The notes under the pieces were generated by a model. It was not told the DNA's origin. It ran no database searches and worked only from the letters and a program-made list of their open reading frames with translations. The translations under genes and the position numbers were made by a program. Positions 14,648 through 14,700 of a stretch of 64,000 nucleotides of DNA are shown here, piece after piece (the first letter of the stretch is position 1; every line of letters begins with the position of its first letter). This DNA is from Escherichia coli (GTDB lineage Bacteria; Pseudomonadota; Gammaproteobacteria; Enterobacterales; Enterobacteriaceae): assembly GCF_003334355.1 (NCBI RefSeq), contig NZ_QOWP01000006.1; one strand, written 5' to 3'.

Positions 14648-14676
14648 AGATGGGGACAAGGGAGAATAATTTCAAG
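14648..14676 (-). promoter_or_regulatory. sigma32 heat-shock promoter of htpG
   Basis: Minus strand reads CTTGAAATTATTCTCCCTTGTCCCCATCT: -35 CTTGAAA and -10 CCCCATCT, close match to the sigma32 consensus, upstream of the htpG start. Confidence 0.8.
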
Positions 14677-14700
14677 CGAGAGCAGGTGATCCTGCTCTCG
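14677..14700 (-). terminator. Hairpin downstream of recR (likely operon terminator)
   Basis: Perfect palindrome CGAGAGCAGG-TGAT-CCTGCTCTCG immediately after the recR stop. Confidence 0.55.

Follow-up and report, generated by a model that had tools for sequence, protein, structure and literature searches.

A stem-loop abutting the sigma-32 promoter of htpG at the recR-htpG junction of Escherichia coli

The promoter of htpG is a founding example of the sigma-32 consensus. We take it to be the promoter listed as htpGp1 in EcoCyc/RegulonDB and, presumably, the one that Cowing et al. 1985 called 'C62.5'; that work reportedly used 'C62.5' among others to derive the sigma-32 consensus. The gene that precedes it is recR, and the recR message ends within a few tens of base pairs of the start of the htpG heat-shock transcript. 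The junction was analyzed in a stretch of 64,000 nucleotides of E. coli DNA, referred to here as the window. Both the heat-shock promoter of htpG and the 3' end of the recR mRNA are already known and are ordinary biology. The conserved packing of the two with zero gap, combined with compensatory turnover of the stem, is a modest descriptive addition and raises no new question by itself.

Layout of the junction

The names htpG, recR, ybaB, and dnaX are those of the RefSeq annotation of identical E. coli DNA, and the gene order in a K-12-type record is apt, dnaX, ybaB, recR, htpG, adk. These four genes and all elements of the junction lie on the minus strand of the window. The features are listed below, with the evidence for each in brackets.

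15693-17624, minus strand: dnaX (open reading frame list)
ends at 15311, minus strand: ybaB (open reading frame list)
14706-15311, minus strand: recR coding sequence, 201 amino acids (open reading frame list, translation, RefSeq annotation of identical DNA)
14708-14706, minus strand: recR stop codon TAA, followed by GCAAA (sequence)
14670-14712, minus strand: extended helix (inverted repeat, minimum free energy structure)
14677-14700, minus strand: stem-loop CGAGAGCAGG-ATCA-CCTGCTCTCG, a perfect 10-bp stem with a 4-nt loop (fold, inverted repeat, covariation)
14676-14670, minus strand: sigma-32 -35 element CTTGAAA, its first base directly after the stem (7/7 match)
14674, minus strand: 3' end of the recR RNA, ...CCUGCUCUCGCUU-3' (Term-seq of Adams 2021)
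14656-14669, minus strand: spacer TTATTCTCCCTTGT, 14 nt, C-rich and G-poor (sequence)
14655-14648, minus strand: sigma-32 -10 element CCCCATCT (sequence match)
14640, minus strand: htpG transcription start, A, giving a 44-nt 5' UTR (start site of Cho 2014)
14596, minus strand: htpG ATG, with 51 nt between the -10 element and the ATG (sequence)
12722-14596, minus strand: htpG coding sequence, 624 amino acids, bacterial Hsp90 (open reading frame list, RefSeq annotation)
12688-12717, minus strand: canonical intrinsic terminator of htpG, a 12-bp stem AUGCCGGAUGAC...GUCAUCCGGCAU followed by UUUUCUUUU (d-score +30.1)

The spacer between recR and htpG is 109 nt long. The htpG terminator, which begins 5 nt 3' of the htpG stop codon, served as an internal comparison. 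The initial annotation of this DNA described CTTGAAA directly beside a perfect palindrome with 10-bp arms 3' of recR, and hairpin and promoter packed within about 55 bp. All of these elements are present, correctly positioned, and they span 53 bp (14648-14700). What that description omitted is the strand: the motifs are read on the minus strand, and the plus strand of the window reads AGATGGGG and TTTCAAG for the two promoter motifs.

Of 5426 complete E. coli genomes, 5425 match a 501-bp query spanning the junction with 95-100% identity and with recR and htpG annotated, and 4981 of these carry the 126-bp junction at 99% identity or more. The two variant strains compared carry changes only at 14642 (A/T, position -2) and 14663 (T/C, in the spacer), which fall outside the -35 element, the -10 element, and the stem. 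The window and K-12 have A at promoter position -2 (14642, minus strand), where T is a common E. coli polymorphism; T at this position (TCA around the start) is found in many E. coli strains, in E. albertii, and in nearly all other genera.

Individual records differ near the junction. In E. coli SA186, a clinical urine isolate (NZ_CP022730.1; L082 2590-3691), an ISApl1 element (IS30-like) is inserted in the htpG 5' UTR at a site equivalent to about 14626 of the window, between the sigma-32 start and the ribosome-binding site, and the distance from promoter to gene is now about 1.1 kb. In E. coli ER1709 (L001 2762-3090), ybaB is annotated as a frameshifted pseudogene; the same record annotates the programmed frameshift element inside dnaX, as expected.

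The sigma-32 promoter of htpG

A sigma-32 promoter combines the -35 element CTTGAA(A) with the -10 element CCCCATNT across a spacer of about 13-15 nt, and transcription starts about 6-8 nt downstream of the -10 element. At the junction the -35 element is CTTGAAA, the -10 element is CCCCATCT, and the spacer is 14 nt; 7 nt (CTCCCAC) separate the start at 14640 from CCCCATCT, in keeping with the distance of about 7 nt given in the initial annotation. A single match to CTTGAAA-N13-15-CCCCAT is present in the 64-kb window, where 0.01 matches would be expected.

The start corresponds to position 494300(+) of NC_000913.2, reported with 29 reads, sigma binding 'H' only, and the unit 'htpG' (Cho 2014, PMC3923258, Table S6). 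Position 494300 of MG1655, in which htpG is at 494344, is position 14640 of the window. This coordinate conversion was validated with the 51-mer printed by Kim et al. 2012 for the start site 493818, which ends at the predicted window base, 15122. Occupancy by the sigma-32 holoenzyme in vivo is a literature result, Cho 2014 listing 'H' alone. Sigma-32 activity is routinely reported with the htpG promoter (PMC3866087), which has also served as a synthetic-biology part in a burden sensor (bioRxiv 10.1101/177030), and CTTGAA is the -35 consensus in the paper on the structure of the sigma-32 open complex (PMC10216364).

The promoter assignment is secure: sigma-32 holoenzyme binds both elements and starts at 14640. 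The initial reading of this site as the sigma32 promoter of htpG is thus upheld by the exact match of both elements, the 14-nt spacer, the published start site, and the sigma-32-only ChIP signal. Recognition of CTTGAAA and CCCCATCT, 14 nt apart, by sigma-32 (RpoH) polymerase, with initiation at the A at 14640, would give htpG its inducibility by heat and misfolding.

A promoter scan of 14000-15400 found no sigma-70-like promoter, and there is therefore no evidence in this interval for an overlapping housekeeping promoter. A passage in Ceroni et al. mentions two overlapping htpG promoters. A minor 5' end has been reported at 494336 (window 14604, minus strand), 8 nt before the htpG ATG (Cho 2014, PMC3923258), and the htpG 5' end of Klebsiella lies 2 nt before the ATG, leaving a 2-nt leader (Kim 2012). 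For htpG, Kim 2012 lists only weak starts inside recR; because the cells were studied without heat shock, this data set is uninformative on the sigma-32 start. Weak starts inside recR that were assigned to htpG in two data sets are 493818, 493832, and 494040 (window 15122, 15108, and 14900, minus strand). The first two are flagged as sigma-32, and no CCCCAT motif is evident upstream of 15122. These starts may represent noise or processing sites; if real, the corresponding htpG transcripts would need to cross the hairpin. The SMRT-Cappable-seq tables have no entry for htpG or recR.

The hairpin and the 3' end of recR

The arms of the hairpin, CGAGAGCAGG (14700-14691) and CCTGCTCTCG (14686-14677), form a perfect 10-bp stem on the minus strand around the loop ATCA. 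The structure begins 5 nt after the recR TAA and occupies -60 to -37 relative to the htpG start. The RNA of 14655-14720 folds with -23.8 kcal/mol (z = -4.9), and none of 200 shuffles was as stable; the stem-loop alone has -17.8 kcal/mol, and -23.8 kcal/mol is reached with a lower helix. In the inverted repeat search the arms extend to 14 nt with one A.C mismatch, the lower helix pairing CAAA (14704-14701) with CUUG (14676-14673). The RNA fold pairs GCUUGAAA of the -35 element with UUUUUAAGC, a segment that includes the recR stop codon. Under either version, read-through RNA is predicted to take the first bases of the -35 element into its lower stem, and 17-18 of 18 distinct Enterobacteriaceae rows retain the lower CAA-UUG pairs (C-G, A-U, A-U). 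The window contains 8 distinct perfect palindromes whose arms reach at least 10 bp around a loop of 3-8 nt, compared with 0.67 per shuffle, as expected from the normal excess of terminator-type hairpins; one of the 8 is the htpG terminator. A permissive Rfam scan of 14300-15000 gave no match.

A Term-seq 3' end designated 'primary' for recR has been mapped at 495042(+) of NC_000913.3 in LB at OD 0.4 (Adams 2021, PMC7815308, supplementary file 1). This position is 14674 of the window, 3 nt past the perfect stem; in htpG promoter numbering it is -34, so that the recR message ends within the -35 hexamer of htpG. In the 61-mers of Adams the 3' end is at position 51, a register that was checked on the chiX and sgrS rows, where it is the last U of the terminator U-run.

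A stable, G+C-rich stem-loop just 3' of the stop codon is what an intrinsic terminator has. The RNA 3' end of a canonical intrinsic terminator lies within a U-tract, 7-9 nt from the stem. The tail after the recR stem, CUUGAAAUU, has 3 U in 8 nt and no such U-tract of 7-9 nt, and the 3' end lies 3 nt from the stem, which counts against true termination at 14674. Because the -35 element starts on the base after the stem, CUUGAAAUU takes the usual position of the U-tract. A scan with the intrinsic-terminator consensus did not call the hairpin, and its d-score (a re-implemented d'Aubenton-Carafa index) is -23.5 (nT = 1.2) compared with +30.1 (nT = 4.42) for the htpG terminator. The 'recR terminator' of the initial annotation therefore stands as a 3'-end-forming hairpin, at which Term-seq places a 3' end, but not as a canonical intrinsic terminator. 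Similarly, a transcription unit does end here, as had been proposed for a dnaX-ybaB-recR operon, but the mapped unit is mainly ybaB-recR, transcribed from promoters inside dnaX with starts at 493028 and 493189 (Cho 2014, PMC3923258; review PMC9610160).

The 3' end would arise either by weak intrinsic termination at the hairpin or by exonuclease trimming back to it. In the latter case, the recR RNA would run into the htpG leader and be ended by Rho or by RNase cleavage, and 3'-5' exonucleases would trim it to the protective stem, with the C-rich, G-poor RNA of promoter and leader as a possible Rho loading site. Dar and Sorek 2018 (PMC6061677) describe a class with a stable stem-loop, no U-rich tail, an adjacent 3' end, and rut sites beyond; such transcripts terminate downstream, often by Rho, and are then trimmed to the protective stem-loop. 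The recR end resembles this class in its position 3 nt past the stem, its U-poor tail, and its d-score of -23.5. The 42 nt from the spacer to +20 contain 16 C and 2 G in the window (38% C, 5% G), and the same region averages 41% C and 7% G in species with the compact arrangement; this likeness is one of composition only, and part of the C-richness is the CCCCAT motif itself. Moreover, no bicyclomycin-sensitive Rho region is recorded in 494,800-495,599 (Adams 2021, supp. 2), in a list that its authors call an underestimate. We regard trimming after downstream termination as the less likely route and place the remaining probability on weak termination at the hairpin itself. The hairpin clearly determines the recR 3' end and is clearly under selection.

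Read in the opposite direction, the hairpin could mainly be an intrinsic terminator for plus-strand transcripts running from htpG towards recR. The plus-strand stem (14677-14704) has no mismatch, a G.U pair standing in place of A.C, and the 10-bp stem followed by UUUGCUU has a d-score of +9.2 compared with -23.5 in the sense direction. However, when the stem is extended through the G.U pair the tail becomes CUUAAAAA, and for this reason the terminator scan does not call the plus-strand hairpin. The Term-seq tables contain no minus-sense 3' end near 495,0xx (Adams 2021, PMC7815308), no promoter-like site was found in 14000-15400, and the T-rich plus-strand tail is absent in Erwiniaceae though the hairpin is kept. 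An antisense terminator, unsupported by Term-seq and by conservation, is very unlikely.

Conservation of the junction and comparison with known systems

A RecR scan with one genome per species yielded 80 loci, and htpG follows recR in 60 Enterobacterales loci. The RecR loci of Vibrionaceae have no htpG within 1.2 kb and are thus uninformative on the junction. A motif of the type CTTGAA(A/T)-N13/14-CCCCAT, scoring at least 12/14, is present in all 61 sequences (the window and the 60 loci), always with a spacer of 13 or 14 nt, and the -10 element CCCCA(T/C) is kept in nearly all of them. A chance juxtaposition of motif-like strings without function, for which nothing speaks beyond the shortness of the motifs, would have to accommodate an expectation of 0.01 matches, mapped 5' and 3' ends, and conservation in 60 other loci; it is refuted by the mapped ends and the conservation, and its probability is negligible.

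An alignment was made of 33 Enterobacteriaceae and Erwiniaceae sequences (the window and 32 loci). The only columns without variation are those of CTTGAA and the -10 core, as selection on the promoter motifs would leave them, and the mapped start base is conserved as A in at least 90%. The best-conserved part of the htpG leader is the Shine-Dalgarno region, TTGAGGT. In Erwiniaceae, Yersiniaceae, Morganellaceae, and others (L027, L029-L062 etc.), the leader ends in ...TTGAGGTA(A/G)NAATGA(G/C)(T/C)ATG. Because an in-frame ATG lies two codons (about 6 nt) upstream of the E. coli-equivalent htpG start, HtpG of these families probably begins M-S/T-M.

The distance from the recR stop codon to the -35 element is 28-31 nt in all 33 aligned sequences, and the hairpins within it have -11 to -23 kcal/mol. 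The 3' base of the hairpin is no more than 2 nt from the -35 element in 31 of the 33. The exceptions are L013, which failed the perfect-stem criteria and for which RNAfold gives a hairpin with a mismatch, and L006, which has a bulged stem and its best perfect hairpin 6 nt away. The 33 rows listed contain 31 different hairpin sequences. Among 19 Enterobacteriaceae aligned in one register, standard pairs make up 93.2% of pair cells, a share that falls to 35-43% once the partner is shifted by 1-3 columns; changes on both sides occur in 9 of 13 pairs, and none of 500 shuffles attained the observed covariation.

These data bear on whether the palindrome is instead a DNA site at which a dimeric protein regulates htpG. 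An inverted repeat with perfect 10-bp arms at -60 to -37, directly upstream of the -35 element, would occupy the position of a class I activator site or an UP element, and an activator or a repressor might bind there. An operator, however, would not be expected to take 31 sequences among 33 with its pairing kept by compensatory change, which is the signature of a nucleic-acid structure. Furthermore, a transcript 3' end maps to the palindrome, and the hairpins of Serratia, Yersinia, Dickeya, and Photorhabdus stand 30-90 nt away from the same promoter. The pairing is kept and the arm sequence is not, so that selection acts on an RNA stem-loop; an operator is rejected on covariation and is extremely improbable.

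Longer intergenic regions, of 52-1031 nt, separate the two genes in Serratia, Yersinia, Dickeya, Pectobacterium, Photorhabdus, and others; a hairpin, where one was detected there, precedes the same promoter by about 30-90 nt, occasionally by more. The zero gap is therefore a feature of Enterobacteriaceae and Erwiniaceae and not a requirement of the promoter. Across about 30 genera in which the hairpin abuts the -35 element, the stem evolves freely next to a frozen promoter.

We conclude, with a probability of about 0.9, that 14640-14712 holds a 3'-end-forming, insulating stem-loop that abuts the sigma-32 promoter of htpG at the recR-htpG junction. The G+C-rich stem-loop would make ybaB-recR transcripts end at 14674 and would thereby separate a constitutive ybaB-recR unit from the stress-controlled htpG unit, its insulating role being suggested by this arrangement. 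The 24 bp upstream of the -35 element thus encode an RNA hairpin and not a promoter element. It follows that cloned 'PhtpG' fragments carry, or cut through, a 3'-end-forming structure.

It is doubtful that the fusion of hairpin and promoter is a selected composite module rather than mere compaction. The grounds that may favor a module are that the arrangement is kept through the radiation of Enterobacteriaceae and Erwiniaceae, that the length is fixed at 28-31 nt, and that -35 bases pair into the stem. In one version, the C-rich promoter, present on read-through RNA, may act as a Rho-loading or release signal for a hairpin that has no U-tract. Alternatively, polymerase released at -34 may be handed to the heat-shock promoter, coupling upstream transcription to htpG initiation.

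Compared with known systems, the promoter is identical in sequence to the known E. coli htpG heat-shock promoter, the sole remark being A instead of T at -2. With canonical intrinsic terminators, the recR hairpin shares a G+C-rich stem-loop soon after the stop codon, an adjoining RNA 3' end, and pairing kept by compensatory change, but it differs from them in the U-tract, in the distance of 7-9 nt from stem to 3' end, and in the positive d-score. With the protective stem-loops of Rho-terminated transcripts characterized by Dar and Sorek 2018 (PMC6061677), it shares the stem-loop, the U-poor tail, the adjacent 3' end, and the C-rich downstream region; unlike these, it has no Rho-dependence recorded at recR in one bicyclomycin data set.

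A relaxed sigma-32 pattern has 3 matches in the window against 0.68 expected, and two further promoters of this type precede heat-shock protease genes.

50913-50937, minus strand: sigma-32-type promoter TTGAATGTGGGGGAAACATCCCCAT, about 90-110 nt upstream of lon
53120-53145, minus strand: sigma-32-type promoter TTGAAATATGGTGATGCCGTACCCAT, about 85-110 nt upstream of clpP

Like that of htpG, these promoters have the form TTGAA-N14-17-CCCAT and each follows the terminator of the preceding gene. The upstream terminators there (clpX and tig) are canonical, with full U-tracts, and their distances to the -35 element are about 24 and about 70 nt, as counted from the printed sequence. At htpG, in contrast, the U-tract is missing and the gap between hairpin and -35 element is 0 nt, which makes the htpG junction the tightest case in the window.
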